From positions 320,001 to 384,000 of the forward strand of contig CAWDYC010000005.1 of the NCBI GenBank assembly GCA_963806535.1: a stretch of DNA of 64,000 bases, in the 5' to 3' direction. Each line of letters begins with the position of its first letter. Within the stretch, counting starts at the first letter, position 1. Source of the stretch: Candidatus Bathyarchaeota archaeon (GTDB taxonomy: Archaea > Thermoproteota > Bathyarchaeia > Bathyarchaeales > Bathycorpusculaceae). This document shows positions 1 to 16,592 of this stretch, piece after piece. Made by a program: the position numbers and the translations under genes. Under the pieces are notes generated by a model. That model was not told the origin of the DNA, made no database searches, and worked only from the letters and a program-made list of their open reading frames with translations.

Positions 1-135
1 AAAATTCACATTGAAGAATTTGATCATCTGAGAATGAATCTCTCTGAGCCGATGGCAAATTTCTTCTTGGTTTATTTTGGAATCGCTTTCTTGGAATGCT
101 GACGCTTGATATTCTGGGGATATTGTTTTTTTCAT
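1..135 (-). CDS. Hypothetical protein, 5' part only (runs off window), translationally coupled to cdc48
   Basis: ATG at 135-133 overlaps the cdc48 stop (TGATG); frame open to position 1: [30 protein letters not shown]... Confidence 0.5.
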   Translation of the reverse strand, partial: MKKTISPEYQASAFQESDSKINQEEICHRLREIHSQMIKFFNVNF

Positions 136-2306
136 CAAAGGTTTTCTCCAGAGCATTGGACCAATTTTTTGCGTTCTTTCATCTTATTGATGGCAGCTTG
201 CATGTCTTCCATGGATATTTCAAGTTTGGTTTTTATTTCGGATGCCTTCACTTTTTCGCTTAGAAAACGGCGAATAGCGAACATCGTAGCTTCTCGACAT
301 ACTCCGTCTATGTCCGCTCCGGTACAACCTTCGGTTTCTTCAACGAGTTTTTCAAATGAAACATTTTTTGCAAGTGGGTTCTTTGCGGTGTGTATTTTGA
401 AAATTTCAAGCCTAGCCTCAGTTTCTGGAGTTGGAACTTGAAGAATAAGGTCGAATCGCCCAGTTCTCAGCAAAGCGGGATCAATTATGTCGATTCGATT
501 TGTAGCTGCTAGAACCATGACACCGTGAAGTTCTTCTAAGCCGTCAATTTCAGTGAGGAATTGGCTAATTACTCTCTCCGACGTGTGAGCATCCGATATT
601 CCGCTTCCACGTTTAGGAACCAATGCGTCTATCTCATCAAAGAAAACGATGCATGGAGCTGATTGTTTTGCTTTCCGAAAGATTTCTCTTACGCCTTTTT
701 CGGATTCTCCCACAAATTTGTTCATAAGGGCTGGACCTTTTACATGGATAAAGTTAGCTTCGCTCTCTTTGGCAACTGCTTTCGCCAAAAGTGTCTTTCC
801 CGTTCCGGGGGGGCCAAAAAGGATTATGCCCTTAGGAGGTTTGGCCCCGGCTTCTTTATAGATATCTGCGTATTTCAAAGGCCATTCTATAGCTTCCATA
901 AGCTCTTGTTTCAATTCGTGAAGACCGCCGATATTTTCCCAAGAAACATTAGGTGTTTCAATTAGAACCTCTCTTAGAGCTGAGGGTTCAACAAAGCGCA
1001 ACGCGTCCTGAAAATCATCCATTCTTACTACTAGTTTGTTGAGCACTTCAGCCGCAATTAATTCGGCTTCAAAGTCAATCTCCGGCAAAATTCTTCGTAG
1101 TGCCTTCATGGCAGCTTCTTTGCAGAGCTCTGTTAAATCTGCGCCAGTGAAGCCATGAGTCAGATTCGACAGAATCATAAGGTCAACTTCTGGTGTAAGA
1201 GGCATACCTCGAGTGTGGATTTGGAGGATTTCAAAACGACCCTCTCTTGTTGGCATTCCTATCTCCACCTCTCGGTCAAATCTACCACCCCTTCGTAGGG
1301 CAGGATCGATTGCATTGGGTCTATTTGTTGCTCCGATGACCACCACTTGTCCGCGTGGTTCTAGCCCGTCCATCAAAGACAGCAGCTGAGATACTACCCT
1401 CTTTTCAACTTCTCCAGTAACTTCTTCTCTTTTCGGAGCTATTGCATCAATCTCATCAATGAATATGATGCAGGGTTTATTCTGTGCAGCTTGGGTGAAT
1501 ATCTCCCTTAAACGACCCTCTGATTCACCGTAGAATTTGCCATGAATTTCTCCGCCGCTAATGCTAATAAAAGTAGCAAAGGTTTCGTTCGCAACTGCCT
1601 TCGCAATAAGCGTTTTTCCAGTTCCAGGTGGACCATGTAGCAAAACTCCTTTGGGTGGTTCTATGCCAAGTCGGTCAAACACTTCTGGGTGACGAAGTGG
1701 CAACTCAATCATCTCTCTGGTCCTTTGAATTTGTTCGGACAGCCCGCCAACATCATCATAAGTGGAACCGAATCGTCTTCCCGTTTCGGCTGTTTTTTCT
1801 CGAATAACGATTTCCGTTGTCGAATGTAATATGGCAGCTGCGCCGTTAGGCTTAATGCGGACAACAATGAAGGAGACGCTTGAGCCTAAAAGTGTAAGCC
1901 GAATCTGGTCTCCTTCAACTAATGGTAAGCCATCCAAGAGGTTACGCACATGTTCTAATGGTTTTTCTCCCCCCCGCCAAGATTGGTCTTGCTCAAGTGG
2001 TGCAAGTGTAACTTTTTCTGCATCCACAACATCGATTTTCCTCACAGAAACGCAGTCGCCAATTCCAACAAAAGAATTGTTCCGTATTATTCCGTCTATT
2101 TGGATTAGATTCTTTCCCCGGTTTTCAGGGTAGGACGGCATGATTTTTGCAACAGTCCTTTTCTTGCCCATTATCTGAATGATGTCACCTGTCTGCGCCT
2201 GAATTTCTTTCATAATTTGAGGATCTATTCTTGCTATTCCTCGACCGAAGTCTCTAAGCGATGCTTCGTCAACGCGCAATGTTGAATTTGGGATGGTTTC
2301 TGACAT
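135..2306 (-). CDS. cdc48: CDC48/VCP-family AAA+ ATPase
   Basis: N-domain ([10 protein letters not shown]), two AAA modules with GPPGTGKT Walker [17 protein letters not shown] Walker [13 protein letters not shown]. Confidence 0.95.
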
Positions 2307-2410
2307 TAGTTTTTACCTTCGCAAATTAGACTACTACTTTACTTTTAGTTAATAACTAAATGTATATATACCTTTTGTTGTATTCTCATTGTCGAGGAAG
2401 AAGGCAAGAT

Positions 2411-3018
2411 ATGGAGCCAACAGGCAAATTTCTCCAAATAGTCGGAAACGAAACCCGCAGAAAAATACTCACCCTACTTTCTCAAAAACCACACTACATT
2501 TCCGAAATAGCCAAAAAATTGGAAATCACCCAACCAGCAATACTCAAGCACCTAAGCATCCTTCAAGAAGCAGGACTTATTGAAAGCTTTCGAGAAGAAA
2601 GCCCCTTAGGAGCAGCAAGGAAATATTATAGAATCTGCCACACAGTAGGCGTAGAAGTAGCCATCAATCCCAAAAGCTTCAGCGTGAACAAACAACTTGA
2701 AACAAAAAGTTGCCCAACATATTTGGAAATAGAAAAGACAATAAAAAAATTGACGGAACAAATAAACCGAAATCAAAGATCTGGTTACAAAAGCGAGTAA
2801 AGCAAGAGTATTAATAAAAAACGCTGAGACACTTTTAGCGTGCAAGGACTTTGAAAAAGGGAAACTGGATTTGCGAAACATGCCGTCAAATGGCTATATT
2901 AAGGAAAAAAACTTCGCAAATAATATTGCATGTTTCAAACGGTGATATCGATTCAGGTTTGCGCCAGCTTATGGATGCAATAAACCTCATTTCACCAAAA
3001 TTTGCAGCCAAATCCTAA
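2411..3018 (+). CDS. ArsR/wHTH regulator of Phr/HSR1 heat-shock-regulator type (apparent frameshifts ~2770-2880)
   Basis: GNETRRKILTLLSQKPHYISEIAKKLEITQPAILKHLSILQEAGLIES...RKYYRI; coding continues in another frame to TAA at 3018. Confidence 0.75.
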
Positions 3019-3098
3019 ATTATAGATGAATCAAATTTGACAAGCAAATTTCAGATTGCTATATCTAAAAATATGGTTATGTTCAAAGCAGCTTCTAA

Positions 3099-3671
3099 CT
3101 AATTCAACTGTCGTTTTTTTAGCCTTGCTTGCAAGATATTATTCTTGTAAATAAATTTCACAGGATCTTCCGTAATTGATGCTGGAAGCTTTATCTTCTC
3201 TAAATATTTCCTAATATCGTTCTCCGCAGTAATAGTAACGAAGTCTTCTCCCACGTTCATATTGACGTCTTTTTCGTTCATACCAGGCAATTCTGCTAAA
3301 ACTATTACGTATTCATCCTCTTCAAAAACATCCACAATCGGCTGTTTTTCTTCTCTAAAACCCAATAACGAAGGATATTGCTTTTTTGTTGCAGACTTTC
3401 TAAAACCACACCTTTTTGCTGGAGCCTTTATAAAGTGTAAACTAGCCGGATGCCTGTGAGCAAAAATCACCTTTTTGGTTTGTGTTTGAGAAAAAGTGTT
3501 GTTTTCGAAACGAACAAAATGTGCGCATTTATTACAACATTGCACCAGCACTTTGTCGTTCTTTATGTTTCTTACCATCGGACAAAAAACCCATTCAGCA
3601 TCCTGAATACCTCGGACCAGCAATTTGGTTTTGCCTTTCCTGAAAGCTACCCGACAGATCATCCACATCAA
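3099..3671 (-). CDS. Hsp20/alpha-crystallin (GvpH-like) protein with Cys-containing N-terminal extension
   Basis: PIVDVFEEDEYVIVLAELPG...YKNNILQARLKK alpha-crystallin signature; N-term CPM...CCNKCAHF. Confidence 0.75.
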   Translation of the reverse strand: MMWMICRVAFRKGKTKLLVRGIQDAEWVFCPMVRNIKNDKVLVQCCNKCAHFVRFENNTFSQTQTKKVIFAHRHPASLHFIKAPAKRCGFRKSATKKQYPSLLGFREEKQPIVDVFEEDEYVIVLAELPGMNEKDVNMNVGEDFVTITAENDIRKYLEKIKLPASITEDPVKFIYKNNILQARLKKRQLN

Positions 3672-3841
3672 ATTGGGCCTCTATTATATCACATCAAAGA
3701 AACGGCAGGTATTATCTTTTCGAAACTTGATTGCATTCAATTTCATTATGTTTAAACCCGCTCTTAAGCGTTAATTGTTGTCATAGTTGTATAGGTTTTA
3801 CTCCGTAATTAGAATATTTCGAAAAACGAAACAAGTCAATA

Positions 3842-3908
3842 TCGGATCTCGATACGAACGCCGTTTTACCCCCCTGAATATTACTTAAATAGTAATATAT
3901 CGTACTCG
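3842..3908 (+). promoter_or_regulatory. gvpA promoter: UAS-like box plus BRE/TATA, shared with gvpN promoter
   Basis: TCGgaTCTCGAtAC...CTGAATATTaCTTAAA...CTCG with identical spacing to 5276-5342. Confidence 0.6.
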
Positions 3909-3947
3909 AGAAGCATAACAAAGCTTCCATAAAGAGGTGAACTAAAA

Positions 3948-4175
3948 ATGGTGCAACAAAGTCCAGATTCAGGTAGTTTGGCAGAAGTAATCGATCGCAT
4001 AATGGACAAAGGTATAGTCGTCGATGCTTGGGCAAGAGCTTCACTGGTTGGAATCGAAATTCTCACCATCGAGGCACGTGTCGTAGTCGCTTCAGTCGAT
4101 ACATTCCTACATTACGCAGAAGAAATCACAAAGGTCGAACAAGCAGCAATAGCTACTCCTGTTCCAGCGTCCTAA
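3948..4175 (+). CDS. gvpA: Major gas vesicle structural protein GvpA (copy 1)
   Basis: [51 protein letters not shown]; GAGGTGA RBS. Confidence 0.97.
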
Positions 4176-4254
4176 ATCTGTAAAAAAAATAATACAAGTT
4201 TGAGATGAAAAAAATGTCTAAACAAAAAACGAAAAATCGAGAGGTGAACTAAAA

Positions 4255-4482
4255 ATGGTGCAACAAAGTCCAGATTCAGGTAGTTTGGCAGAAGTAATCG
4301 ATCGCATAATGGACAAAGGTATAGTCGTCGATGCTTGGGCAAGAGCTTCACTGGTTGGAATCGAAATTCTCACCATCGAGGCACGTGTCGTAGTCGCTTC
4401 AGTCGATACATTCCTACATTACGCAGAAGAAATCACAAAGGTCGAACAAGCAGCAATAGCTACTCCTGTTCCAGCGTCCTAA
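4255..4482 (+). CDS. gvpA: Major gas vesicle structural protein GvpA (copy 2, identical)
   Basis: Identical to copy 1; GAGGTGA RBS. Confidence 0.95.
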
Positions 4483-4511
4483 ATCTGTAAAAAAAATAAT
4501 ACAAGTTTGAG

Positions 4512-4892
4512 ATGAAAAAAATGTCTAAACAAAAAACAAAAAATCAAAAAGGGACAGCAACTGAAACAACGAAGAAAACTACTCCAAATCCAAATTCCGT
4601 AAATGGCAAGAAAAAACTTTACCAGCAAACCGCCATCAATTTCCAGCAAGCCGCAAACGAAATGCTCGCAGAAGGTATCTGTAACCTTCAAACGGGCGTT
4701 TCCAGTATGCAGAAAAGCATCAATCAAACCACAATCAATTTCCAAAAAGCTGCCAACAAAATGCATGCAGACGGTGCAAACAACCTAAGATCGGGCGTCG
4801 CTGAAATGATGACTGGTATCGCTGCCATGCAAGCTAGCATAGCCAATCAAGCAAAAGCCCAGCAAGAATACATTAAACAGTTCTACGGATGA
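4512..4892 (+). CDS. GvpC-like helical repeat protein
   Basis: Two 33-aa repeats (QTAINFQQAANEM.../QTTINFQKAANKM...), C-terminal YIKQFYG, position between gvpA and gvpN. Confidence 0.6.
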   Translation: MKKMSKQKTKNQKGTATETTKKTTPNPNSVNGKKKLYQQTAINFQQAANEMLAEGICNLQTGVSSMQKSINQTTINFQKAANKMHADGANNLRSGVAEMMTGIAAMQASIANQAKAQQEYIKQFYG

Positions 4893-4999
4893 TCCCCTCA
4901 CCCGTTGGAACAAAGCTGCTCCCAATCCCCAATTTTTTTTCAATTAGTCAGATCAATCGATGAAGTAAATGGCTAAGTAATCAAAGAGAGGTGAATTGA

Positions 5000-5161
5000 A
5001 TGTCAAAAATGCCAAAAAGTGCAGTTAACGCACAAGAAAGAGATAAAAAAATAAAATGGTTAAGAAAGCACAGAGAAATGGTACAATATTGTTCAGTAGT
5101 TCCTCGTCCGCAGAGAGTTCGCATGCTCTGGGTAAATGATCTCAAAAAAGAAAGGTCTTAA
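5000..5161 (+). CDS. Small basic protein (53 aa), possibly GvpI-like
   Basis: GAGGTGA RBS; MSKMPKSAVNAQERDKKIKWLRKHREMVQYCSVVPRPQRVRMLWVNDLKKERS; below ORF-track cutoff. Confidence 0.55.
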   Translation: MSKMPKSAVNAQERDKKIKWLRKHREMVQYCSVVPRPQRVRMLWVNDLKKERS

Positions 5162-5275
5162 TTATTCAAGGACCACTTTTTCTCTTTTCAAAAACTAAGT
5201 ATTCAAAATCGAATTTGAATGAGCACCTTAAAAGAACCCATATTTCAATCTTGGGAAAGTTTTTGCCAATAGTTT

Positions 5276-5342
5276 TCGATTCTCGAAACAGTTCTCGTAA
5301 CGTGTATCTGAATATTCCTTAAAAGGTTTGCTGTAAGTCTCG
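5276..5342 (+). promoter_or_regulatory. gvpN promoter with the same architecture as the gvpA promoter
   Basis: TCGatTCTCGAaAC...CTGAATATTcCTTAAA...CTCG, same spacing as 3842-3908. Confidence 0.6.
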
Positions 5343-5375
5343 CATGTATAAGGAAAAAAAAGAGGACTTTAAAAA

Positions 5376-6437
5376 ATGAAATACATGCCAACTCATCAGA
5401 GAGTTGTTCGCGGAAAACGAGTTCATGAAACCTTGGAAGAAAGGCAAACTAAAGTTTCCGATGAAACAAAACATCCGGAACTCTCAATCGATAAAATAGA
5501 AACAGAGTTCCTAACTCCCTCAATCGAAAGTTTTATTGAAACCGTACAAGTCAGAAAGTTAAAAGACAGAATTAGACTCTGGGTTAAAGCTTCATGTCAC
5601 CCCCATATTGTCGGCCCCACTGGTTGCGGAAAAACAACAATGGCAATGCAAGTAGCAAAAGAATTGGGCAGACCAACAGTATGGATAAACGGCGATGATC
5701 AAATAACAACAACAGACTTAATCGGTGGATACTCAGAAATGGAAGCTGAAAGTCTGGTAGACAAATACATCCATAACGTCAGGGTAACTAAGGACAAGAC
5801 AAAATACAGATGGGTTGACAATCCGTTAACACTCGCTTGTAAACATGGCTACACATTAGTCTATAATGAATTCTCGAGATCAAAGCCAGAAGCCAACAAC
5901 GTTCTGCTATCAGTATTAGAAGAACACGTTTTAGAACTCCCAACTATGTTTGGAGAAGAAAGATACGTCAAGGTTCATCCAGATTTCAAAGTGATATTCA
6001 CAAGTAACTCTGTGGAGTATGCAGGAGTACACAGACCACAAGATGCCCTATTGGACAGAATGATAGATCTTCACATGGATTATTACGACTTTGATACTGA
6101 AGTAAAAATTGTTAGAGCGCATTCCCACATCTCAATGGTCGAGGCGAAAAATATTGTCAAAATCGTTCGGACATTAAGAGAAGAACTGCCTGCCCCTCAT
6201 AAACCTGGCACACGGGCTGAAATCATGATTTCTAAAGGCCTCAAAGCTATGGGCAAGTATTCAAAAGAAGACTTTGAACAAATTTGCTTAGATGTGCTCG
6301 CAACAAAAATAGGCAATCCAACGGAAATTCCTAAAAAAATTGATTTCATAAAGGAAATGCTAAGTGATGCTCACTCAAACATACAGAAAAACCGGTCCGA
6401 TTTTATAGTACCAGAAATCGGGGTTTGCACGACTTAG
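5376..6437 (+). CDS. gvpN: Gas vesicle AAA+ ATPase GvpN
   Basis: GPTGCGKTTMA, WVDNPLTLAC, YNEFSRSKPEANNVLLSVLEE, EYAGVHRPQDALLDR. Confidence 0.95.
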   Translation: MKYMPTHQRVVRGKRVHETLEERQTKVSDETKHPELSIDKIETEFLTPSIESFIETVQVRKLKDRIRLWVKASCHPHIVGPTGCGKTTMAMQVAKELGRPTVWINGDDQITTTDLIGGYSEMEAESLVDKYIHNVRVTKDKTKYRWVDNPLTLACKHGYTLVYNEFSRSKPEANNVLLSVLEEHVLELPTMFGEERYVKVHPDFKVIFTSNSVEYAGVHRPQDALLDRMIDLHMDYYDFDTEVKIVRAHSHISMVEAKNIVKIVRTLREELPAPHKPGTRAEIMISKGLKAMGKYSKEDFEQICLDVLATKIGNPTEIPKKIDFIKEMLSDAHSNIQKNRSDFIVPEIGVCTT

Positions 6438-6459
6438 GATCTCATTGAAAGGAGACTAA

Positions 6460-6750
6460 ATGAAAATGGCGTTAGAGAAGATCTCTCTTTTCAAAGTCAC
6501 GGAAGTAGCATTTGATGCAGCAAAAAGATTTCTTTCCAAAAATCCAGAGACTATCATAGATATAAAAGAAAAAAAAGACGAATGGGCTGTCACTATTGAA
6601 GTACTGCAGAGAAAGTCAATACCTGACACACAAGATCTTCTCGCAAGATATGTAATAAGAATAGGCAAAGATGGACAAGTAATAGGCTGGACCCAGAAAA
6701 TGGTCAGAAAGCGAAGCGATCGAATTTCACCTGAAACAACAGAGGAATAG
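6460..6750 (+). CDS. gvpO: Gas vesicle protein GvpO/GvpR-like
   Basis: WAVTIEVLQRKSIPDTQDLLARYVI motif; directly after gvpN. Confidence 0.85.
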   Translation: MKMALEKISLFKVTEVAFDAAKRFLSKNPETIIDIKEKKDEWAVTIEVLQRKSIPDTQDLLARYVIRIGKDGQVIGWTQKMVRKRSDRISPETTEE

Positions 6751-6775
6751 GAAGATAACTAAGGAATGAAAACAC

Positions 6776-7597
6776 ATGGAAACTGCAACACTCTCTCAAC
6801 AGCTTCTGAATATGGACACTATTAATCCTAAACATGCTCTTCACTTGTATGCCCCAAATGTCGATAAGTATTCGATTCAAAATGCCTTCTTGATTTCCTC
6901 TCGACTCGGCCAAAAAATAATTTATGTTACTGCTGACAGCAGCGCCTTGCTAATAAAAGAGTTTAATCATGTAGGAGGAAAATTAAGAGTTGTTTCCCCA
7001 AGTGAACTATACGAACTCAAAAAAGAAGATTTTGAACAACAACTTATTGTCGATGCAGGTTCGTTAATCAATCAAGAATATGCGGAAATTGAAAGAAGGG
7101 AAAGCTTTCTAAATGAGTTATGCCTAAAGCGCAACTTAAACTGCTTATGTACGTACGACGTTACGAAATTCAACTTTGAAAAGATCAAGCAATTAGCTTC
7201 ACTCCATAAAGAACTTTGCTTAACAACAAATGATCTCACAATATTATCTGGTGATTTCTTTGATGAATCAACATTGTCAGCCGAATCGGTTGAAAAAATA
7301 GTAAAAGACAACTTAGAAAACGTGATTTTAGCGATTCTTCAGAAGAACATGATGTGCGGAACAGAAATAATCGGAACTATACACTTGAAGTTTAACGTGT
7401 TGCTTAGTCCGGGAACAATATATCCGATGCTTCATTCGTTGAAACAGAAAGGATTATTGACGTTTAAGAAATCAGGCAAAGAAATAGTTTATGGACCAGT
7501 CGAAGATGCTAAACCCAGAATAAGAAATCTGGTTAATGAGCATATTCAAGCTCACTCAGTTCTAAACCATTACCTGCAACAAGAACTAAAAATCTAG
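6776..7597 (+). CDS. MEDS-like sensor fused to GvpE/PadR-like wHTH regulator
   Basis: N-term ...RESFLNE...CLCTYD...H (MEDS-like); C-term IVKDNLENVILAIL...CGTEII...LLSPGTIYPMLHSL. Confidence 0.65.
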   Translation: METATLSQQLLNMDTINPKHALHLYAPNVDKYSIQNAFLISSRLGQKIIYVTADSSALLIKEFNHVGGKLRVVSPSELYELKKEDFEQQLIVDAGSLINQEYAEIERRESFLNELCLKRNLNCLCTYDVTKFNFEKIKQLASLHKELCLTTNDLTILSGDFFDESTLSAESVEKIVKDNLENVILAILQKNMMCGTEIIGTIHLKFNVLLSPGTIYPMLHSLKQKGLLTFKKSGKEIVYGPVEDAKPRIRNLVNEHIQAHSVLNHYLQQELKI

Positions 7598-7608
7598 AGG
7601 GTTGACGA

Positions 7609-8268
7609 ATGAAAAGAGAAGAAGGAAAATACTTTTACTGCGCAATAAAAAGCAACGAAGTGAAAAACTTTGGCAAAATAGGTCTCGGCAACGAAGAAGT
7701 CTACACCATTCCATGTGGAGACATAGCTGCAGTTGTCAGTGACTCTCCAATGACTGATTACGAATTGACCGAAGATAACACAAAGAAACATGAGAACGTA
7801 ATTAAAGAAATAATGAATCAATACTCAGTTGTACCAACGGAATTTGGGACCACAATAAAAAATGAAATAATCCTAAAACGCTTGCTAAAGAAAGCCTACA
7901 ACCCTACAGCAGAATCCCTAAAACTCGTTGAAAACATGGTTGAACTCGGAGTGAAAATTGTGCAAACCGATAAAACCGTTTTCGTAGACGATCAACAGAA
8001 AAAAACATTGGCCTCTGAAATTACTGAGTCTTTAAAATCAAAATCAAAAGAAACAGTTACGTGTGACTTATTTAGCGAGAGACTTGTTTTAAATGCCTCT
8101 TTTTTGGTTAACAAAGAACGGATAGATGCTTTCTCGGATGAAATTGAAATCTTGCAGATTAAATATCCAAAACTAAAGTTTCTCTATAGTGGACCCTGGG
8201 CACCGCATAACTTTGTATATATAAAAATTGGCACCGAAGGCGTGGAAATAAAGAAAAAGCAGGAGTAA
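7609..8268 (+). CDS. gvpF: GvpF/GvpL-family gas vesicle protein
   Basis: YFYCAI, IAAVVSD, HENVI, VVPTEFGT, YSGPWAPHNFV. Confidence 0.85.
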   Translation: MKREEGKYFYCAIKSNEVKNFGKIGLGNEEVYTIPCGDIAAVVSDSPMTDYELTEDNTKKHENVIKEIMNQYSVVPTEFGTTIKNEIILKRLLKKAYNPTAESLKLVENMVELGVKIVQTDKTVFVDDQQKKTLASEITESLKSKSKETVTCDLFSERLVLNASFLVNKERIDAFSDEIEILQIKYPKLKFLYSGPWAPHNFVYIKIGTEGVEIKKKQE

Positions 8269-8272
8269 TAAG

Positions 8273-8563
8273 ATGCCATTTTTCATAGACGATATATTTC
8301 TAGAAATGCTTGGCCTCTCTGTGCCGCCATTTGATATGATCTGGCTTATGGAGACAATCATGGATTATGGTGACGAAGGAAGAGTTAAAGAAAATCAACG
8401 AAGAATCAACAATGAATTAAGAGAAAATAGGCTACTCTATGAACTTGGCGAAATAACCAAGGAAGAATATGAAAAAAACAATAGTGAACTTTGCCATCAA
8501 CGCCTAATGAACAAACGATTAAACATTGTGCGTCCCAGTCAGAGAATAAACATTCTAGGATAA
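8273..8563 (+). CDS. gvpG: Gas vesicle protein GvpG
   Basis: FFIDDIF...LRENRLLYELGEITKEEYE. Confidence 0.85.
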   Translation: MPFFIDDIFLEMLGLSVPPFDMIWLMETIMDYGDEGRVKENQRRINNELRENRLLYELGEITKEEYEKNNSELCHQRLMNKRLNIVRPSQRINILG

Positions 8564-8717
8564 TTTTGTAGGAAGAGAAAAACATGATAGAAACACAAAA
8601 AAAATTAGTTAATCCAAAACGTTCAGAAAATCGAAGTGAAAAGGCGAATTCAGGATTAGAATTAGCCTTATTCTCAGAAAAAATAGGTATCTGTTCAATC
8701 AATAGGAGAAATGTCAT

Positions 8718-9041
8718 TTGTCCAATAGATCACGAGATACCACCCTAGTCAGCCTATTAGACGTAATACTAGACAAGGGCGTCACAGTAGATGCAAGGGC
8801 AAAGATTCGCTTTAGTAACATCGATCTTTTGGACACTAAAACTCGTATAATCCTTTCATCTTTTGAGACAGCTAAAAGAATTGGTTTGAAGTTTCCCGAA
8901 AATACTAATTTGAACACCCAATCATGGCAATCCTTAGCAACAATGCAGTCGTGCCTTAACTGTGGCAAAGAAATCAACCAAGAGGAACTTCATAGCGAGT
9001 GCCCATGGTGTGGATGGGTCAACAAACAAAATTGGAGGTAG
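8718..9041 (+). CDS. GvpA-family (GvpJ/M-like) protein with C-terminal zinc ribbon
   Basis: LVSLLDVILDKGV...SFETAKRIGLKFP; CLNC...CPWCGW. Confidence 0.8.
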   Translation: MSNRSRDTTLVSLLDVILDKGVTVDARAKIRFSNIDLLDTKTRIILSSFETAKRIGLKFPENTNLNTQSWQSLATMQSCLNCGKEINQEELHSECPWCGWVNKQNWR

Positions 9042-9046
9042 AAAAC

Positions 9047-9430
9047 ATGGAGAACATGACTTTAACGCCTGAAAAAGAACATTCTGGATTAGCTGACGCA
9101 ATCGATAGAATACTAGATAAGGGATTAGTGATTAACGCAGACATCGCTATCAGTGTTGCTGGAGTGGAACTGCTCGGAATAAAAATCAGAGCTGCTCTTG
9201 CTTCTTTTGAGACTGCAGCGAAATATGGACTAGAATTTCCATCAGGAACCAATCTAGATACAGCCGCCTGGAAAAACGCCGCAATAGAAAAAGAAGATTG
9301 CCCGCAATGCAGCAAAGAAGTTAACAGAGAAGAACTGCTGAACTTCGCATGTCCCTGGTGCGGATGGGAAAGCGCCAGAGCCAAGAAACTAAAACCAATG
9401 AAAGTTGGAGTGAAGGTGGGTGTAAATTGA
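9047..9430 (+). CDS. gvpJ: Gas vesicle protein GvpJ with C-terminal zinc ribbon
   Basis: LADAIDRILDKGLVINADIAISVAGVELLGIKIRAALASFETAAKYGLEFPSGT; CPQC...CPWCGW; GGAGG RBS. Confidence 0.85.
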   Translation: MENMTLTPEKEHSGLADAIDRILDKGLVINADIAISVAGVELLGIKIRAALASFETAAKYGLEFPSGTNLDTAAWKNAAIEKEDCPQCSKEVNREELLNFACPWCGWESARAKKLKPMKVGVKVGVN

Positions 9431-9969
9431 GTTCATTAAAGAATCTTGATGATCTTCTTGACGCTTTGGACGAAAAAAGCAAGCAGATGACGGTATATCT
9501 CTTGAACGAGCGCCATGCAGAGTTAAGAGAGTTGGCTAACCTGATTTGTGCCGCTTCAGATATGGAAGTCCTCATGATAATTAGAGAAATCATTAACCCT
9601 AAAGCTAAAGAAATCGTGGGTAAACCCATCGTTTCTTTTCAACGGTCAAAAATGGATTCGTTGACCGGCGAAATGATCATGTTTAGTTGGTGGGTTGATG
9701 AATATCTCGCAAGCAGTGTTCGTACTGAGGAACTATTAGATATTATAGATGAAGAAGATATCATAAGAATTGTTGCGGAGTTGCCTTCAACAGAGAAACA
9801 AATCCAAGTAAAATTAGCAGAGTCTCATCTAATAATATCTGGACGACAATACTACAAAGAACTCTCACTCCCTTGCCTCGTCAAAGATAAAATTGAAAAA
9901 ACCATCAACAACGGCGTTTTAGAAGTAAAATTAAACAAAAAGGCGGTATTACATTGCCAATTGAAATAA
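9427..9969 (+). CDS. GvpH/Hsp20-like protein
   Basis: C-terminal alpha-crystallin-like DIIDEEDIIRIVAELP...NNGVLEVKL; TTG start overlaps gvpJ stop. Confidence 0.65.
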   Translation: MSSLKNLDDLLDALDEKSKQMTVYLLNERHAELRELANLICAASDMEVLMIIREIINPKAKEIVGKPIVSFQRSKMDSLTGEMIMFSWWVDEYLASSVRTEELLDIIDEEDIIRIVAELPSTEKQIQVKLAESHLIISGRQYYKELSLPCLVKDKIEKTINNGVLEVKLNKKAVLHCQLK

Positions 9970-10271
9970 ATGAGAGCGATCTGAAATCAGGGCTTCTTGG
10001 AGTAATTGTTACTCTAGTTGAAGTTATACAAGATGTTCTTGAAAGAGAAGCTATACGGAGAATGGAGTCAGGCAGGCTAAACGCTGAAGAAATAGAAAGA
10101 TTAGGAAAGGGATTGATGGAGCTTGATGAAGCACTTGAAAACATCAAAGAAGAAAATTCTCTCCAATCTATAGTTAGATCTTTACGAACAGACATGGACC
10201 GATTAGTGGAAGACACTATTGATCTCATGGCTAATCCAGAAAATATGGCTATTAAGAGTGACTCCAAATGA
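9954..10271 (+). CDS. gvpK: Gas vesicle protein GvpK
   Basis: GLLGVIVTLVEVIQDVLEREAIRRMESGRLNAEEIERLGKGL. Confidence 0.92.
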   Translation: MPIEINESDLKSGLLGVIVTLVEVIQDVLEREAIRRMESGRLNAEEIERLGKGLMELDEALENIKEENSLQSIVRSLRTDMDRLVEDTIDLMANPENMAIKSDSK

Positions 10272-11074
10272 CTCAAACATGCGTTAGTGAAGAAGGAAGA
10301 TACCTCTATTGTGTCATCAATAGTGGAATCGAAAAGAATTTTGGGCAAGTAGGCGTTGAAGATAGCACCGTTAGTGTAGTTGCTTTCAAAGACATTGGTG
10401 TAGTTGTCCACTCATGTAAAGCAAAGCCCTATGAAACAAAGTCAAAAGAAGAAGCGGGCGAGTGGATTTTAGCTCACCAATACGTTATTGATCTTGCAAC
10501 AGTTGAATACGGAACCGTTATTCCGTTAACCTTCGATACAATTTTCAAGGGAAACGACAAAACTCTCACGGATTGGCTCAATGAGGAGTACGCTTATCTT
10601 AAAGCTATGCTAGCAAAACTCGAAGGAAAAGCTGAATACGGAGTTCAGGTTTTCATTAAAAACGAAACTTTTGAAAAATCACTGAGTAACAATGAAGAAA
10701 TCATTGGTTTAGAAAAAAAACTTGAAAACACAAGCAGCGGTGCAAGTTACCTAATTAGAAAGAAGCTGGAACAAAAAATGCAGCTTGAAAAACAGCTTAT
10801 AATAGGCAACTACACAAAAAATCTTTGTTGCCAAATCGAGAAAGTTGTCGACGATATAAAGTTTAGTTCAACAAGCAAAGAAGTTCCCAAGCAATGGCAA
10901 GACCAACAAATGATTCTAAACATAACTTGCCTAGCAAAAAAAGAGAAAATCGGAACCTTAGGAAGTGTGCTAGGGCTTCTTAAGAATGAAGGGTTTGCTG
11001 TTAGATTTACTGGACCTTGGCCGCCTTACTCTTTTGTTGGGCAAATGAGTAAATCAAAAATAAGGGGAAACTAA
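10268..11074 (+). CDS. gvpL: Gas vesicle protein GvpL
   Basis: GRYLYCVI, WILAHQYVID, GTVIPLTFDTIF, RFTGPWPPYSF. Confidence 0.88.
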   Translation: MTQTCVSEEGRYLYCVINSGIEKNFGQVGVEDSTVSVVAFKDIGVVVHSCKAKPYETKSKEEAGEWILAHQYVIDLATVEYGTVIPLTFDTIFKGNDKTLTDWLNEEYAYLKAMLAKLEGKAEYGVQVFIKNETFEKSLSNNEEIIGLEKKLENTSSGASYLIRKKLEQKMQLEKQLIIGNYTKNLCCQIEKVVDDIKFSSTSKEVPKQWQDQQMILNITCLAKKEKIGTLGSVLGLLKNEGFAVRFTGPWPPYSFVGQMSKSKIRGN

Positions 11075-11076
11075 AA

Positions 11077-12057
11077 ATGGCAAAATACATTTATGGAATC
11101 ATAAACTCAGATGACAAAAAAAACTTTGGAAACATTGGAATGGATAACGGCGAAACTTACAGTGTCCAATTCGAAGATATATGCGCTGTTGTGAGTGATG
11201 TGTTTGAAGACTGCAGAATTGGCGTCGAAGAAGCGAGAATTCATGATAAAGTTTTACGAAAGATTATGGATCCTTATTCCGTGATTCCAATGGGTTTCGG
11301 ATCAATAGCGAAGAATGACGCAGAGATAAAGAACATTCTAAAACGGGGTAAAATGAAACTTAAGAACACCTTGGAAAAAGTTGATAATAAATTGCAAATT
11401 GACATAAAGATTTCTTGGGATAAAACAATCCTTGCAATCATCTTAAAGGAAAATACCAAAATCCAAGAGCTAATCAATGCAGCTAAGGAAAACACGGATC
11501 AATCAAGCAGAATTGAGTTAGGCAGAAAAGTTAAATCAGCGCTTGATGAAAAGAAAGCTAAATATTTAGCCCACATAGAAAATTCACTGAAGAGCTTTTC
11601 AATGGATTTTGAAGAGAACAAAAACGTAGACCAAGACACTATTTTGAATGCTGCTTTCTTGATTGATAAAAACCAAGAGCAAGAATTCTACGCTAAATTG
11701 ACTGATTTAGAGAAAAAATATGATGGTAAACTTAAGTTTCTCTCCGTTGGTCCGTTGCCAGCTTATAATTTTACAAAAATCGTTGTTGGAAGAATAGATT
11801 ATGAAGCCTTAGAGGAAGCAAGGAGAACATTGGGTTTAAGTCAAGAAGTTAGCATATCTGAGATTAACTCAGCATATAGCAGTTTGGCACGAAAATATCA
11901 TCCTGATCTCCATCCAAACGATCCATCAAGTGAGAAAAAATTCAAGAAAATAATAGAAGCCAAATCTTTAATGGAAAGATATTGTGAACATTACCTTTGC
12001 TCGATTGAGAAAACAAAAGTTGAAGAAAACATCATTGTCGAGGAAAAAACTAGCTAA
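11077..12057 (+). CDS. GvpF/L-family protein with C-terminal DnaJ J-domain
   Basis: KYIYGII...SVIPMGFG...VGPLPAYNF followed by ARRTLGL...EINSAYSSLARKYHPD...KFKKI. Confidence 0.85.
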   Translation: MAKYIYGIINSDDKKNFGNIGMDNGETYSVQFEDICAVVSDVFEDCRIGVEEARIHDKVLRKIMDPYSVIPMGFGSIAKNDAEIKNILKRGKMKLKNTLEKVDNKLQIDIKISWDKTILAIILKENTKIQELINAAKENTDQSSRIELGRKVKSALDEKKAKYLAHIENSLKSFSMDFEENKNVDQDTILNAAFLIDKNQEQEFYAKLTDLEKKYDGKLKFLSVGPLPAYNFTKIVVGRIDYEALEEARRTLGLSQEVSISEINSAYSSLARKYHPDLHPNDPSSEKKFKKIIEAKSLMERYCEHYLCSIEKTKVEENIIVEEKTS

Positions 12058-12073
12058 ACTGTTCAGGTGTATA

Positions 12074-14002
12074 ATGATGATTCGAACAATCGGGATTGAT
12101 CTTGGGACTTCTAATTCTGCGGCTGCCGTTATGAAAGATGGAAAAATAAGACTTGTTCCGGCCGTCGAAGGACAAAATGTTTATGGGAAAATGTTTCCTT
12201 CAATTGTCGCTTTCAAAGTAGATGGGGAAATACTTGTTGGCAAAGATGCCAAAAAATACTCTTACGAACACCCTGAACGAACCGTTAGATGGATTAAGAG
12301 AAAAATAGGAACAGATTACACTGAGAACATCGATGGCCAATCATATAGCCCCCAAGAAATATCGGCTATGATTCTCAAAAAGATAAAAAAAGATGCTGAA
12401 AACTACATAGGCGAAAAAATAGAAAAGGCAGTAATTTCTGCGCCAGCCTACTTTAATAATAATCAAAGGAATGCAACTAAAGAAGCTGGGGAAATAGCCG
12501 GTTTTGAAGTTTTAAGAATAGTGAGTGAACCCACCGCAGCTTCATTAGCTTATGGTCTAGATAAGGTGGGTAAAAATCTGAAAGTAGCAGTGCTAGATTT
12601 GGGCGCTGGAACTTTCGATGTGACCATACTGGAGATGAACAAAGGGCTATTTCAGGTTCTGTCTACCAGCGGAGATATTCATCTTGGAGGCAAGGACATG
12701 GATGATTCGATTCTAGAGTACCTTCTGGAAGAAGTTGAAGAGAAACATGGCGTTTGCTTAGAGAACAATTCTAAAAACCTAAACTTGCTAAGAGATGCTG
12801 GAGAAATCGCCAAGATTCAACTTTCAACCAAACACTCAACCTCGATAGATACTGGAATCAAACTTAACCATTCCAAAAAAAGAATTAGCATAAGTTTGAC
12901 TCGAAAAAAGCTTGAACAGTTAATTAATCCACAACTTGAGAGATTACTAAATCCAATAGAAAACTCTCTTAAAGACTCCGGCTTAAGTTCTCAGAATATA
13001 GATAAATTAATTTTAGTAGGAGGACCAACCAGGATGCCCATAGTTAGAAAATACTTTGGAACTTATTTTAAAACAAAACCTGAAGTAGGCATAGACCCCA
13101 TGGGAATAGTTGCTACAGGTGCCAGCGTTCAAGCAAGTGTCTTGAATGGCGAAATAAAAGAAATGCTATTGCTAGACGTTACTCCCCTATCTTTGGGAGT
13201 TGAGACATCAGGCGGACTCTTTACAAGGCTAATCAAACGAAACAGTACGATTCCAACAGAGGAAAACATGACTTTTGCCACCCAAGAAGATTACCAAACA
13301 TCAATGATGATCCATGTCTTACAAGGTGAACGCGAAATGGCTAAAGATAATACTTCCGTAGGGTTGTTTAAAATCGACTGTATCCCAAAGGCACCCAAAT
13401 ACGAACAAAAAGTGGAAGTAACATTCAAAATAGATACAAACGGCATTTTGATTGTCTCCGCTGAAATCTTGGAAACAGGAAAAATTGAAGCTATCAAGAT
13501 TTCAGAGACAAGCAATCTTTCGCAGGATGAAATTATCAAGAGAATTATTGAAGCAACTAAGTTCAACGAGACGGACGAGAAAGAAAAAGAGTGCATCGAA
13601 ATTCAAAATCAAGCTGCAGCCACGATCCAATCTACAAAGAGATTTATTGAAGAGGCAGGAGGAAAAATCTCTCCTGAAGATAAGAAAAAACTTGAAACGG
13701 GTTTGCACCACTTACAAACAGCCATGAAAGCACATGAACCTCCGAGAGTTAAGTTATCTACTAGTAAACTTCTCGAACTTAAGGACGGTCTAATTGCAAA
13801 AACGAAAAAGGTAGGCCAAGCAAAGGTGTTACTTTCCGCTGCGGAAAAAAGATTAGGTAGCAAAGTATCTGAAAAGAAAAAGAAAGAGCTCAAGGCATCA
13901 ATAAGAAAGATTGAGCAAGCGTCACAGGAATGCGTAACTCAAGAGTTCATTAATTTAAGAGAAATGCTTGTTTTGTTAGAGGCGGATTGCGGAGAGGATT
14001 AA
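12074..14002 (+). CDS. dnaK: Hsp70/DnaK chaperone (divergent, gvp-cluster copy)
   Basis: IGIDLGTSNS, PAYFNNNQRNATKEAG, EPTAASLAYG, LGGKDMD, LVGGPTRMP, LLLDVTPLSLG. Confidence 0.92.
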   Translation: MMIRTIGIDLGTSNSAAAVMKDGKIRLVPAVEGQNVYGKMFPSIVAFKVDGEILVGKDAKKYSYEHPERTVRWIKRKIGTDYTENIDGQSYSPQEISAMILKKIKKDAENYIGEKIEKAVISAPAYFNNNQRNATKEAGEIAGFEVLRIVSEPTAASLAYGLDKVGKNLKVAVLDLGAGTFDVTILEMNKGLFQVLSTSGDIHLGGKDMDDSILEYLLEEVEEKHGVCLENNSKNLNLLRDAGEIAKIQLSTKHSTSIDTGIKLNHSKKRISISLTRKKLEQLINPQLERLLNPIENSLKDSGLSSQNIDKLILVGGPTRMPIVRKYFGTYFKTKPEVGIDPMGIVATGASVQASVLNGEIKEMLLLDVTPLSLGVETSGGLFTRLIKRNSTIPTEENMTFATQEDYQTSMMIHVLQGEREMAKDNTSVGLFKIDCIPKAPKYEQKVEVTFKIDTNGILIVSAEILETGKIEAIKISETSNLSQDEIIKRIIEATKFNETDEKEKECIEIQNQAAATIQSTKRFIEEAGGKISPEDKKKLETGLHHLQTAMKAHEPPRVKLSTSKLLELKDGLIAKTKKVGQAKVLLSAAEKRLGSKVSEKKKKELKASIRKIEQASQECVTQEFINLREMLVLLEADCGED

Positions 14003-14003
14003 T

Positions 14004-14606
14004 TTGCAACCTTCAAGGGATGGAGCTCTTGTCGATCTTATTGATAGAATTTTAGTCAAAGGCGTAATTCTTCATGCAGATGTAATAATTTCAGTTTCCG
14101 GTGTCCCACTAATTGGGATTAACCTGAAAGCTGCAATTGCTGGTTTGACTACTATGGTCGACTATGGGATGATGGGAACATGGGATGAACAAATCAGAAA
14201 AACCGTTCTAACTGAAAGCATCGAGGAAGCCCCATTAATTAAGGATGAGGAAATTATTCTAAAGACTTTTGGCTCATATTTTTGTCATAACAGATCTGTT
14301 TCTGGGGTATGGAGACCAGGCTTTCTTTATGTTACAAACAAAAGATTGTTCCTTTTCAAGAAGAACCCGAGTGAATTTTTGTTTGAGACCCCTATAGACA
14401 ACATAAAAGGATTGTCTGTCGATATGACCAGAAACTTGGAAGAAGAAAACAAGGCTCTTCAAGTTTTGGTTAAAAAAGATCTTACAACCACAGAGATAGT
14501 GTTAATTCGTACCGCAAAAAAAGATGTTCTAAAAAGTAAACTTGAAGAAATATTGGCAGAAACTAGGCAATCAGAAAAAGTTTTAGTTCCCGTTAATTTA
14601 ATCTAG
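14004..14606 (+). CDS. GvpM/J-family protein fused to GRAM/PH-like domain
   Basis: LVDLIDRILVKGVILHADVIISVSGVPLIGINLKAAIAG; C-term WRPGFLYVTNKRLFLF. Confidence 0.75.
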   Translation: MQPSRDGALVDLIDRILVKGVILHADVIISVSGVPLIGINLKAAIAGLTTMVDYGMMGTWDEQIRKTVLTESIEEAPLIKDEEIILKTFGSYFCHNRSVSGVWRPGFLYVTNKRLFLFKKNPSEFLFETPIDNIKGLSVDMTRNLEEENKALQVLVKKDLTTTEIVLIRTAKKDVLKSKLEEILAETRQSEKVLVPVNLI

Positions 14607-14620
14607 TTTTTTTGGTTATC

Positions 14621-15001
14621 CTATTTGGATCCACATTTTTTGATAAAGTTGGACAATATATTAGTGGACAAGTTAAAAGCAACTATTTTTTTTCTGAATA
14701 TCTCTTTTCCTTTTAACGTTAATTGGTAAAAAGTTTTTCCATCGTCTGAAACTGATTTTATCAACTGCTCATTTTCTAAACTGTGAAGCAAAGGATATAG
14801 TGTAGCTGGACTCAACAGAATACCAAACTCTTTATGGATTATAGCTATGATTTTATAGCCATAGGTTGATCTTCCATTCAACATTGACAGAATTACTATG
14901 TCCAAGAAAGTTTTGACGTGTTTCTCGATTGTTTGATCTTCAGGCATTAAATTATCTAAAAATGAAAACTCGAATTCGTTAGCATTTCTTGTTTCCAACA
15001 T
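14621..15001 (-). CDS. PadR/GvpE-like transcriptional regulator
   Basis: KTFLDIVILSML...YGYKIIAIIHKEFGILLSPATLYPLLHSLE...YQLTLKG. Confidence 0.85.
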   Translation of the reverse strand: MLETRNANEFEFSFLDNLMPEDQTIEKHVKTFLDIVILSMLNGRSTYGYKIIAIIHKEFGILLSPATLYPLLHSLENEQLIKSVSDDGKTFYQLTLKGKEIFRKKIVAFNLSTNILSNFIKKCGSK

Positions 15002-15320
15002 TTCTTATTCTTCTCCTTTATCTTCAATTAAATTAGTTTCCAGATCATTTCGAAGCTAGGAAACCTTAGTCCTGATTGATCCTATGTATTTAAAAAGAAT
15101 TATGAACAGCTATCATTCTCTATTCGGAATGTGAATATTCAAGTTAAATTACTAGAGTCTTAATCAGCAAAATGCCAAAGCATTTTTAGAAACCTTCACT
15201 GCTTGAACTCCAACAAAGTTAACAGAACGAATAATCCACAAGCACAACTAGAAGTTAATACTTGAAATTCATAAATATTATTAATATTTTAGGCATTTTC
15301 AGCAATGGTGAGGTGTTAAA

Positions 15321-15449
15321 TTGTTATCTCGTGATTGTGACGGTTGCGAAAGACAACTTTTCGAATGTAAACGCCGCTTTTTCAGAGTTTGCATCGGCGA
15401 AAAAGTTTTTTGTCCAGATGGCACAGCCCATCTAGTCGACAGCGAATAG
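15321..15449 (+). CDS. Small Cys/His-rich protein (42 aa)
   Basis: GGTGAGGTG RBS, TTG start: MLSRDCDGCERQLFECKRRFFRVCIGEKVFCPDGTAHLVDSE. Confidence 0.55.
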   Translation: MLSRDCDGCERQLFECKRRFFRVCIGEKVFCPDGTAHLVDSE

Positions 15450-15609
15450 TTAAAATGAACGATTGAAGACCCATCGCCAACGCTATCGTATACTCTTCAG
15501 AAATTTGTCTCAAAGTGCTTCGAATATTTAGTCTCTTGAACCATTTTTCATTTTGCTAGAAAAATTTCAGACATGAAACATATAAACTGGCTTTTTTTAG
15601 GGATGGAAG

Positions 15610-15685
15610 CGGGCCCGGTGGGATTTGAACCCACGATCTCCGGCTCCGAAGGCCGACACCTTAATCCGTGCTAGGCTACGAGCCC
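15610..15685 (-). tRNA. tRNA-Arg (anticodon TCG)
   Basis: Reverse complement GGGCTCGTAGCCTAGC...TCGGC-CT-TCG-GA-GCCGG...GGTTCAAATCCCACCGGGCCC folds as a cloverleaf. Confidence 0.92.
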
Positions 15686-15758
15686 TTTTCCATCAAAAAC
15701 CTCTAGCATACGGTGCTAAAGGTGATACCACGGTTTTATTTAGCCTTTGCATCTCTTT

Positions 15759-16300: not shown

Positions 16301-16355
16301 AAAGCGTCCCTTAGTTGGCGCTGCCATGGCTGACTATATACATCGCCATTGGAAT
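16301..16355 (+). repeat. 55-bp dispersed direct repeat, copy 1 (copy 2 at 27477-27531)
   Basis: aaagcgtcccttagttggcgctgccatggctgactatatacatcgccattggaat; 49/55 identical by manual alignment. Confidence 0.8.
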
Positions 16356-16575: not shown

Positions 16576-16592
16576 CGAATAGGCGATAATAA

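Follow-up and report, generated by a model that had tools for sequence, protein, structure and literature searches.

How the extremely hydrophobic protein GvpA stays soluble and enters a growing gas vesicle is an open question. It bears on a stretch of 64,000 nucleotides from a Candidatus Bathyarchaeota archaeon (GenBank assembly GCA_963806535.1, contig CAWDYC010000005.1, positions 320,001 to 384,000; this whole stretch is referred to as the window), as chaperone genes stand both within and beside its gas-vesicle (gvp) cluster. Do these chaperones belong to the gas-vesicle system, or do they merely accompany it? The window, part of a 402-kb contig in a 2.95-Mb genome that is 91.75% complete, carries a conserved but rare accessory gas-vesicle island of ~17 kb. 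We consider it likely that this island unites a full gvp set with an ATP-driven proteostasis machinery of its own, made up of an Hsp70/J cassette and a Cdc48 module. The chaperone genes keep their motifs intact, one of them is fused to a gas-vesicle protein fold, and the Hsp70 and Cdc48 copies strictly co-occur with gvp genes and form clades separate from their housekeeping counterparts. These results suggest that energy-driven chaperones help build or maintain gas vesicles.

Gas-vesicle-linked Hsp70, J-domain, and Cdc48 proteins

Two adjacent genes of the gvp cluster encode a GvpF/L-fold protein with a C-terminal J domain (the GvpF-J fusion) and an Hsp70. PF06386 and PF00226 are both present in all 120 fusion homologs listed (55-100% identity), and the HPD motif of the J domain (H275, P276, and D277) is invariant in 20/20 aligned homologs. 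The G/F region, zinc finger, and C-terminal domains of class I/II DnaJ proteins are missing: the model TIGR02349 matches the J domain only (44.5 bits versus a cut-off of 377.2), and the fusion is therefore a class III, client-specific J-protein. The genome of the window has two J domains only, one in DnaJ and the other in the fusion.

The neighboring protein is an Hsp70, which aligns end to end with the solved DnaK 2v7y and keeps the nucleotide-binding, linker, and substrate-domain motifs. It falls below the cut-offs of two housekeeping DnaK equivalogs (646.2 bits versus 648 and 644 bits versus 822.55). A canonical grpE-dnaK-dnaJ operon is present on contig 12 of the same genome, and the DnaK encoded there passes both equivalogs with 856.1 and 851.2 bits; the two Hsp70 proteins are 47% identical. 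The gvp chaperones are hence extra, island-specific copies and not the housekeeping ones. In a FastTree phylogeny (105 rows, 586 columns) of 18 gvp-linked copies, four housekeeping DnaKs, and 83 of the 150 nearest representatives (those of 560-700 residues), all 18 gvp-linked copies fall together with two nearest representatives in one clade, apart from 4/4 housekeeping DnaKs. Both the clade and the housekeeping DnaKs lie within a 34-row group with a support of 99, and the clade adjoins a group that holds Bathyarchaeia DnaKs. A plasmid search with the gvp-type Hsp70 gave nothing but ordinary dnaK genes, none above 48% identity, and an atlas look-up of its nearest representative (P0154) gave only generic DnaK clusters.

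The association of the two genes with each other and with gvp genes is strict. In tblastn searches with the window proteins, the fusion is directly followed by the Hsp70 inside the gvp cluster in 20/20 Bathyarchaeia loci (the window, L005-L020, and L031-L033; in L009 and L012, the contig ends within the Hsp70 gene). Two gene orders occur, in which GvpM either follows the Hsp70 or precedes the fusion, and the pair is never separated. The loci include a distant family of three genomes, whose fusion and Hsp70 share only 32-34% and 50-51% identity, respectively, with the window copies. In G008, a genome reported to be 100% complete, the gvp copies are the only Hsp70 and the only J domain; GrpE, a housekeeping DnaK, and a housekeeping DnaJ were looked for in the whole genome and not found. 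The pair is thus the sole Hsp70 system in this genome and therefore apparently able to work alone.

The third chaperone, encoded beside the cluster, has the full Cdc48 architecture (CDC48_N, CDC48_2, and two AAA domains, both with Walker A and B motifs). It is one of three full Cdc48 proteins in the genome, of which the gvp-adjacent paralog has the lowest score. In an IQ-TREE phylogeny of 20 rows, 7/7 gvp-adjacent copies form a clade with a support of 100, apart from 10 other paralogs of the same genomes; moreover, they are without the C-terminal tail that is common to eight of these 10. In 13 loci (the window, L005-L008, L010, L011, L013-L016, L019, and L031), a Cdc48 gene is found at most ~6 kb from the gvp cluster, and the linkage survives three layouts, represented by the window type, L013, and L031. 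The gene is followed by one for a 341-residue protein (p341) and then by one for a ~250-residue protein with an alpha-crystallin domain (ACD), an order kept in 7/7 Bathyarchaeia loci with enough flank.

The protein p341 (L042:14131-15156, minus strand) belongs to no known family, always follows the gvp-type Cdc48, and has invariant VCxHELxEK and FKEGxCEA motifs. It contains an invariant H-E-x-x-E motif. Its predicted model is of medium quality, with a predicted local distance difference test (pLDDT) score of 64.5, and a fold search gave no match at E <= 0.001. The non-significant matches are mostly to zincin peptidases, the best at an E-value of 0.2, so that a role as a protease is no more than a lead.

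The distribution of these genes follows that of gvp genes. Among 41 genomes of the genus, which were searched for GvpN, Cdc48, Hsp70, the regulator, and the long ACD protein of the island, GvpN occurs in three (G000, G416, and G417). The same three genomes have orthologs of the gvp-adjacent Cdc48 (at least 76% identity), the gvp-type Hsp70 (at least 66%), the ArsR/Phr-like regulator (65-78%), and the long ACD protein (43-59%). Hence, all four are found in 3/3 gvp-bearing and 0/38 gvp-less genomes: for Cdc48, 36 of the latter have only paralogs of at most 59% identity and two, which are incomplete, gave no match, while for Hsp70 they have only DnaK at 41-52%. In a sample of 401 genomes of the class, true GvpN (above cut-off) is present in six, with one further copy cut by a contig end, and the fusion/Hsp70 cassette is present in all seven GvpN-bearing genomes. 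A scan of one genome per prokaryotic species returned nothing with a single fusion query and 16 loci with an alignment of fusion homologs; 15 are Candidatus Bathyarchaeia/Bathyarchaeota records from several projects (including the metagenome-assembled genome BA2), one is a Micrarchaeota record, and the contigs are up to 2.0 Mb long. One metagenome-assembled genome (isolate SPRUCE 278) has two gvp clusters, L005 and L011, with different gene orders on separate contigs. The Micrarchaeota record (L013) carries a typical gvp/Hsp70/Cdc48 cluster of the Bathyarchaeia type; its Hsp70 and Cdc48 nest inside Bathyarchaeia clades, and the contig may therefore be mis-binned or mislabelled.

Parts of this machinery also occur in bacteria. 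A search with the distant fusion gave a third fusion type (P0134-P0136), which in the metagenome loci L035, L037, and L039 is accompanied by a gvp cluster, an ACD protein, and a full Cdc48-like gene, with no Hsp70 in the gvp cluster within the DNA seen. L037 is bacterial by its neighbors (a sigma-54 activator and a sigma-70 region 2 protein), and its Cdc48-like protein, together with two relatives, is sister to the Bathyarchaeia gvp-Cdc48 clade. The end of this cluster (L037:15228-18735) encodes a 252-residue protein with HTH_17 and an ACD-like C-terminus, a 191-residue protein without a family, and the full Cdc48-like ATPase (with CDC48_N and CDC48_2 domains), an enzyme that is unusual for bacteria. 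The ESM Atlas has clusters of GvpL/F + DnaJ proteins, which come largely from Pseudomonadota and Chloroflexota. Such a fusion, with a marginal J-domain score (28.0 bits versus 27.8), is also encoded by the cultured, gas-vacuolate Octadecabacter arcticus 238 in the plasmid-borne gvp cluster of pOA238_160, which has an Hsp20 gene as well. As GvpF-J fusions are also bacterial, the fusion is not lineage-specific. It is widespread, and the dedicated Hsp70 together with the Cdc48 module marks the Bathyarchaeia type.

Collectively, these data agree with an initial annotation of the window, which had proposed a dedicated proteostasis module in a Bathyarchaeia-like archaeon. The J-GvpF fusion, the extra Hsp70 paralog, the 3/3 versus 0/38 co-occurrence, and the gvp-specific ATPase clades all speak for such a module; synteny recurs in relatives, with the Hsp70/J pair in all 20 loci and Cdc48 near the cluster in 13, and in the trees neither ATPase groups with housekeeping copies. 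The origin in Bathyarchaeia holds as well, since the same cluster in 15 such records, on contigs up to 2 Mb, makes chimerism unlikely. The bacterial precedent for chaperone genes near gvp clusters, which the annotation had conceded, is stronger than it had claimed, given the GvpF-J fusions and the Cdc48-like gene.

Layout of the island and its other genes

All reading frames are intact across positions 135-15001 of the window, as judged from the open reading frame (ORF) listing and from Pfam and NCBIfam profile scans. The gvp cluster occupies one strand (plus) from 3948 to 14606 (Table 1). It begins with two gvpA genes, the repeat protein, and a 53-residue ORF, continues with GvpN, GvpO, the PadR/MEDS-like protein, GvpF, GvpG, two GvpJ-like proteins, an ACD protein, GvpK, and GvpL, and ends with the fusion, the Hsp70, and GvpM. 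On its left flank lie the long ACD protein (minus), the ArsR/Phr-like regulator (plus), and Cdc48 (minus). The island extends beyond the left window edge, where the Cdc48 operon continues through p341 to a 248-residue ACD protein. Its GC content is 0.36-0.39 compared with 0.42-0.44 in the flanks.

Table 1. Features of the gas-vesicle island, in window coordinates; scores are followed by the cut-off where one is given (wHTH, winged helix-turn-helix).
Feature	Position	Strand	Evidence or remark
p341, first 52 codons of 341 residues	1..156	-	No known family; second gene of Cdc48 operon
Cdc48/VAT-type AAA+ unfoldase, gvp-associated	135..2306	-	TIGR01243 979.6 bits vs cut-off 802.65
15-bp palindrome, candidate operator	2345..2359	.	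7-base arms, one central base; divergent cdc48/regulator promoter region
ArsR-family wHTH regulator, Phr-like	2360..2800	+	PF01022 59.5 bits; likely start ATG at 2408
Long small-heat-shock-like protein	3099..3671	-	Alpha-crystallin domain in C-terminal ~85 residues
gvpA copy 1, shell protein	3948..4175	+	PF00741 52.2 bits; NF006874 129.7 bits vs 100
gvpA copy 2	4255..4482	+	Protein identical to copy 1; tandem duplication
126-residue internally repeated helical protein, GvpC position	4512..4892	+	Position and repeats
53-residue basic ORF	5000..5161	+	Conserved; between GvpC-like gene and gvpN
GvpN AAA+ ATPase	5376..6437	+	TIGR02640 342.9 bits vs 266.8
GvpO	6460..6750	+	PF05800 62.6 bits
273-residue regulator-like protein	6776..7597	+	C-terminal PadR wHTH PF03551 28.3 bits vs 27
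GvpF	7609..8268	+	PF06386 144.9 bits
GvpG	8273..8563	+	PF05120 31.6 bits vs 30.6
GvpJ-like, C-terminal zinc ribbon	8718..9041	+	PF00741 29.4 bits; halo GvpJ 45 bits, below cut-off
GvpJ, C-terminal zinc ribbon	8999..9430	+	PF00741 59.9 bits; NF046090 101 bits vs 125
ACD-containing protein, GvpH-like position	9349..9969	+	NF041800 54.1 bits vs 140; without Pfam match
GvpK	9954..10271	+	PF05121 71.7 bits
GvpL	10268..11074	+	NF045778 223.6 bits vs 200
GvpF/L-fold + C-terminal J domain fusion	11077..12057	+	PF06386 175.3 bits; PF00226 48.2 bits vs 27.8
gvp-dedicated Hsp70 paralog	12074..14002	+	PF00012 582.7 bits; ORF open from 11984, likely start 12074
GvpM, C-terminal PH-like extension	14004..14606	+	NF046091 91.5 bits vs 109; PF00741 48.3 bits
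PadR-family regulator	14621..15001	-	PF03551 43.9 bits; closes cluster in most relatives
tRNA-Arg(TCG)	15609..15685	-	Directly after island

The initial annotation had listed a near-complete, co-oriented gvp set with an embedded Hsp70 and J-domain fusion, and every element that it named is where it had been placed, with its frame intact. The list was not complete: it left out the 273-residue gene, the 53-residue ORF, and the leftward continuation. It had further described the flanking genes as Cdc48, Hsp20, and a heat-shock-type regulator; the genes are there, but the small heat-shock protein and the regulator do not reach the cut-offs of the families implied. For the regulator, the Phr/HSR1 model NF053602 scores 94.8 bits versus 320, and only its ArsR-type wHTH is secure. 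The protein at 3099-3671 scores 17.8 bits versus 20.8 for HSP20 and 82.3 bits versus 140 for NF041800; on their sequences, this protein and that at 9349-9969 are divergent and ACD-like, outside the Hsp20 family as the models define it.

The gvpA pair is a 307-bp tandem unit (2.0 copies, 99% identity) that encodes two identical 75-residue proteins. GvpA and GvpN are recognized by NF006874 and TIGR02640 above their cut-offs, and the accessory set of F/L, G, J, K, M, and O by PF06386 (three times), PF05120, PF00741 (three times, for J, J, and M), PF05121, and PF05800 above the Pfam cut-offs. The outer scaffold GvpC is not recognized, as the 126-residue repeat protein has no match in Pfam or NCBIfam; this protein is kept at the GvpC position in relatives, and its position and internal repeats would fit a GvpC-like role. 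The gene for GvpJ at 8999..9430 probably starts downstream of 8999, and both GvpJ-like proteins (8718-9430) end in CxxC...CxxC zinc ribbons. GvpM has a C-terminal extension of ~130 residues with a weak match to bacterial PH domains (bPH_3, 18.2 bits, below cut-off). This PH-like tail is also seen in the distant family (L031) and is absent in L032. Taken together, the set suggests that this archaeon may form gas vesicles.

The 53-residue ORF is without a family match in Pfam and NCBIfam and has a tblastn match in 14/16 loci L005-L020 and in L031-L033, with an identity of up to 96%. The 273-residue protein, which has a weakly MEDS-like N-terminal half (22.6 bits versus 29.8, below cut-off), is encoded in the clusters of all relatives in which the DNA extends that far; the island holds three wHTH regulators in all. 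The palindrome occurs once in the 64-kb window, with no copy before gvpA. With at most two changes, it recurs in the cdc48-arsR spacer of six other genomes (L005, L008/L059, L014, L015/L040, L016, and L041) and could be an operator of the ArsR/Phr-like regulator. The Phr/HSR1-type operator core AAC-N5-GTT was rejected as a candidate, with 26 matches versus 23.6 expected by chance and none in the promoters of interest.

A comparison of the flanking DNA with five gvp-less genomes of the genus gave only scattered matches and did not fix the borders of the island. About 300 bases upstream of the tRNA-Arg gene, a stretch of ~165 bases (~15305-15470) is 81-84% identical to other genomes of the genus; an Rfam search of 15000-16600 gave only the tRNA, and no tRNA was called on the stretch itself.

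A proposed mechanism and its alternatives

In Halobacterium, GvpF has been reported to be the only partner of GvpA, whose N-terminal half it binds, and GvpL to bind all accessory proteins (PMC7688916). GvpF also binds the GvpM C-terminus, and GvpH prevents GvpM aggregation (PMC6107691). GvpA aggregation causes proteotoxic stress in Escherichia coli (PMC12848028). In the model that we favor, the core of the machinery would be the two-gene cassette of the GvpF/L-fold-J protein and the specialized Hsp70. The GvpF-fold domain would bind a client of the GvpA family, either the very hydrophobic GvpA or GvpJ/M. The HPD loop of the J domain would then trigger ATP hydrolysis in the adjacent Hsp70, which would clamp the client and hold it soluble until it is handed over to the growing vesicle. 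Most likely, the pair functions by capturing GvpA-family clients with the GvpF domain and delivering them to the dedicated Hsp70 through the J domain; the logic would be that of HscB/HscA with IscU. The divergent second module, which comprises Cdc48, p341, the ACD protein, the long small heat-shock protein, and the Phr-like regulator, would most likely extract, hold, or clear misassembled or collapsed shell protein. The Cdc48 module would thus probably act in quality control, by unfolding or extracting misassembled shell protein.

A complex prediction for the GvpF domain with GvpA lends weak support to the first step. It scored 0.51, with the best of three controls at 0.05, a partner pLDDT of at least 64, and at least 88% of contacts shared between runs. 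In the calibration of the tool, 116 of 157 solved pairs reach the mark applied, as do 2 of 215 mismatches. Passes at 0.60 or below comprise only 18 of the 157 solved pairs, plus both mismatches; at the level of 0.51, wrong passes outnumber right ones unless the guess is likely beforehand.

Several observations weigh against the model. The client of the fusion is deduced from haloarchaeal GvpF, which is itself without a J domain, and the predicted complex is of the grade just described. The trees are small, one is from FastTree, and the sister position of the L037 Cdc48-like protein has a support of only 80. The distant L032 fusion has a J domain of borderline score (26.4 bits versus 27.8, and 28.4 bits in a second scan). 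In L015 (G416:C9:395660-397586), the Hsp70 is in two pieces with an in-frame TGA, owing to either a pseudogene or an assembly error; therefore, the gene can be lost, or the assembly is wrong there. Bacterial clusters with a GvpF-J fusion can be without an Hsp70 in the cluster (L037 and Octadecabacter), so that the presence of the fusion does not in itself entail a dedicated Hsp70. No Cdc48 was seen in the DNA examined around L018 and L033, four loci being cut by contig ends, and the gvp cluster of G162 (L032) has the Hsp70/J pair with no Cdc48 on that contig. Moreover, a literature search found no report of vesicles in any Bathyarchaeia. For window positions 3901-13900, no RNA run is listed, which is no evidence either way, and three DNA runs contain only 0.07 of its words.

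The G162 cluster, with gvp genes and no adjacent Cdc48, would also suit the view that the chaperones are a general stress module that merely travels with gvp genes on a mobile island and serves the whole proteome. The trio of Cdc48, a Phr-like regulator, and a small heat-shock protein resembles the archaeal Phr heat-shock regulon; the palindrome is confined to the cdc48/regulator spacer and has no counterpart before gvpA; and the low GC of the island and the tRNA-Arg gene next to it are often found with islands. We nevertheless regard this view as quite improbable. The J domain is part of the same polypeptide as a gas-vesicle assembly fold, the Hsp70 lies between gvp genes on the same strand in 20/20 loci, and the 38 gvp-less genomes of the genus are all without orthologs of these copies. 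The host, moreover, already has a housekeeping DnaK/DnaJ/GrpE system and two other Cdc48s, and the Cdc48 linkage is kept through three layouts and in bacterial gvp clusters. An artefact, in which bacterial DNA was mis-binned or chimerically assembled into an archaeal genome, is hardly credible, even though GvpF-J fusions and gvp-linked Cdc48 are also on bacterial contigs, the related locus L013 bears a Micrarchaeota label, and the GC of the island is below that of the flanks. The island sits inside the 402-kb contig, the cluster recurs in the 15 records from several projects, the Hsp70 clade adjoins the Bathyarchaeia DnaKs, and the Bathyarchaeia type, with its MEDS/PadR gene, 53-residue ORF, and PH-like GvpM tail, differs from the bacterial type in L037.

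Within a gas-vesicle function, the ATPases could act mainly in turnover or regulation, by dismantling collapsed vesicles, recycling GvpA, or removing a regulator (compare the control of GvpE by GvpD in haloarchaea). Cdc48-type unfoldases extract proteins from stable assemblies, the cluster has its three wHTH regulators, and the H-E-x-x-E motif and zincin-type fold matches of p341 point in the same direction. However, those matches are not significant and come from a model of medium quality, GvpF-type proteins are known to bind GvpA early in assembly (PMC7688916), and the Hsp70/J cassette is placed among the assembly genes and not with Cdc48. Turnover as the main task is thus rather unlikely. 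On a wider scale, it is possible, though doubtful, that gas-vesicle biogenesis in many uncultured prokaryotes is ATP-driven, through a gvp-specific Hsp70 with its GvpF-J adaptor and through Cdc48 with its p341 and ACD partners. The Cdc48 lineage would then be common to archaeal and bacterial gvp clusters, the toolkit would have moved between the domains, and the Cdc48 module would recycle shell protein.

If true, cells could use the Cdc48 module to pull shell protein out of collapsed or misbuilt vesicles and reuse it, a task for which no machinery is known. The model also predicts buoyancy control in Bathyarchaeia, abundant uncultured archaea known mainly from sediments, soils, and peat, as a trait that is rare and patchy, in line with the six GvpN-bearing genomes among 401. 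It would provide an example of general chaperones splitting off organelle-specific paralogs in prokaryotes. In addition, GvpA aggregation is described as a practical obstacle for gas vesicles as acoustic reporters in other hosts (PMC12848028). A natural cluster with its own J-adaptor, Hsp70, and unfoldase names concrete helper proteins that can be tested and could supply parts for engineering.

Comparison with known systems

The island is a variant of gas-vesicle clusters, a system already known. A full-text literature search, in which subscription journals were not covered, turned up no description of an Hsp70 embedded in a gvp cluster, of a fusion of GvpF with a J domain, of a Cdc48 linked to gvp genes, or of Bathyarchaeia gas-vesicle genes, and no comment on the J domain or Cdc48 of bacterial gvp clusters; nor did it yield a paper on the architecture of the island. 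Hsp20 genes and ArsA homologs in bacterial gvp clusters are already published (PMC2963123), and in Psychromonas ingrahamii the DnaK-like genes 1232 and 1233 are not far from the gvp genes 1248-1262 (PMC2405808).

Families A, N, O, F, G, J, K, L, and M are common to the island and the gvpACNO/gvpDEFGHIJKLM clusters of Halobacterium salinarum, as are a GvpH-like helper and a repeat protein at the place of GvpC. Haloarchaeal gvp clusters are not known to have an Hsp70 or a Cdc48 and are regulated by GvpD/GvpE. Here, a MEDS-like/PadR protein is found instead of the latter, GvpJ has zinc ribbons, and GvpM has a PH-like tail; haloarchaeal GvpF covers no more than residues 4-238 of the fusion and is thus without the J domain. 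The bacterial clusters (L035, L037, L039, and Octadecabacter pOA238_160) share with the island a GvpF-J fusion and an ACD or Hsp20 protein, but they have no Hsp70 in the DNA seen and show a bacterial gene order and bacterial regulators (a sigma-54 activator and sigma-70 region 2). The second module resembles archaeal Cdc48/VAT and the Phr (HSR1) regulon in its full Cdc48 architecture, ArsR-type wHTH neighbor, small heat-shock protein, and palindrome in the common promoter region. It differs in that its Cdc48 is a third, island-specific paralog with a clade of its own and without the tail, and in that its regulator scores below the Phr cut-off.

For the Hsp70/J cassette, the nearest parallel is HscB-HscA (Hsc20/Hsc66) of Fe-S cluster assembly. 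The gvp-type Hsp70 is not an HscA (TIGR01991, 491.4 bits versus 708.55), and the domain that would bind the client is a GvpF/L fold in a gas-vesicle context. In both systems, a specialized Hsp70 is encoded next to a class III J-protein that binds, or in the gvp pair would bind, one client through its non-J domain, and operates alongside the housekeeping DnaK system; the gvp pair of G008, in a genome without GrpE, would fit the independence from a nucleotide exchange factor that is also a feature of HscB-HscA.

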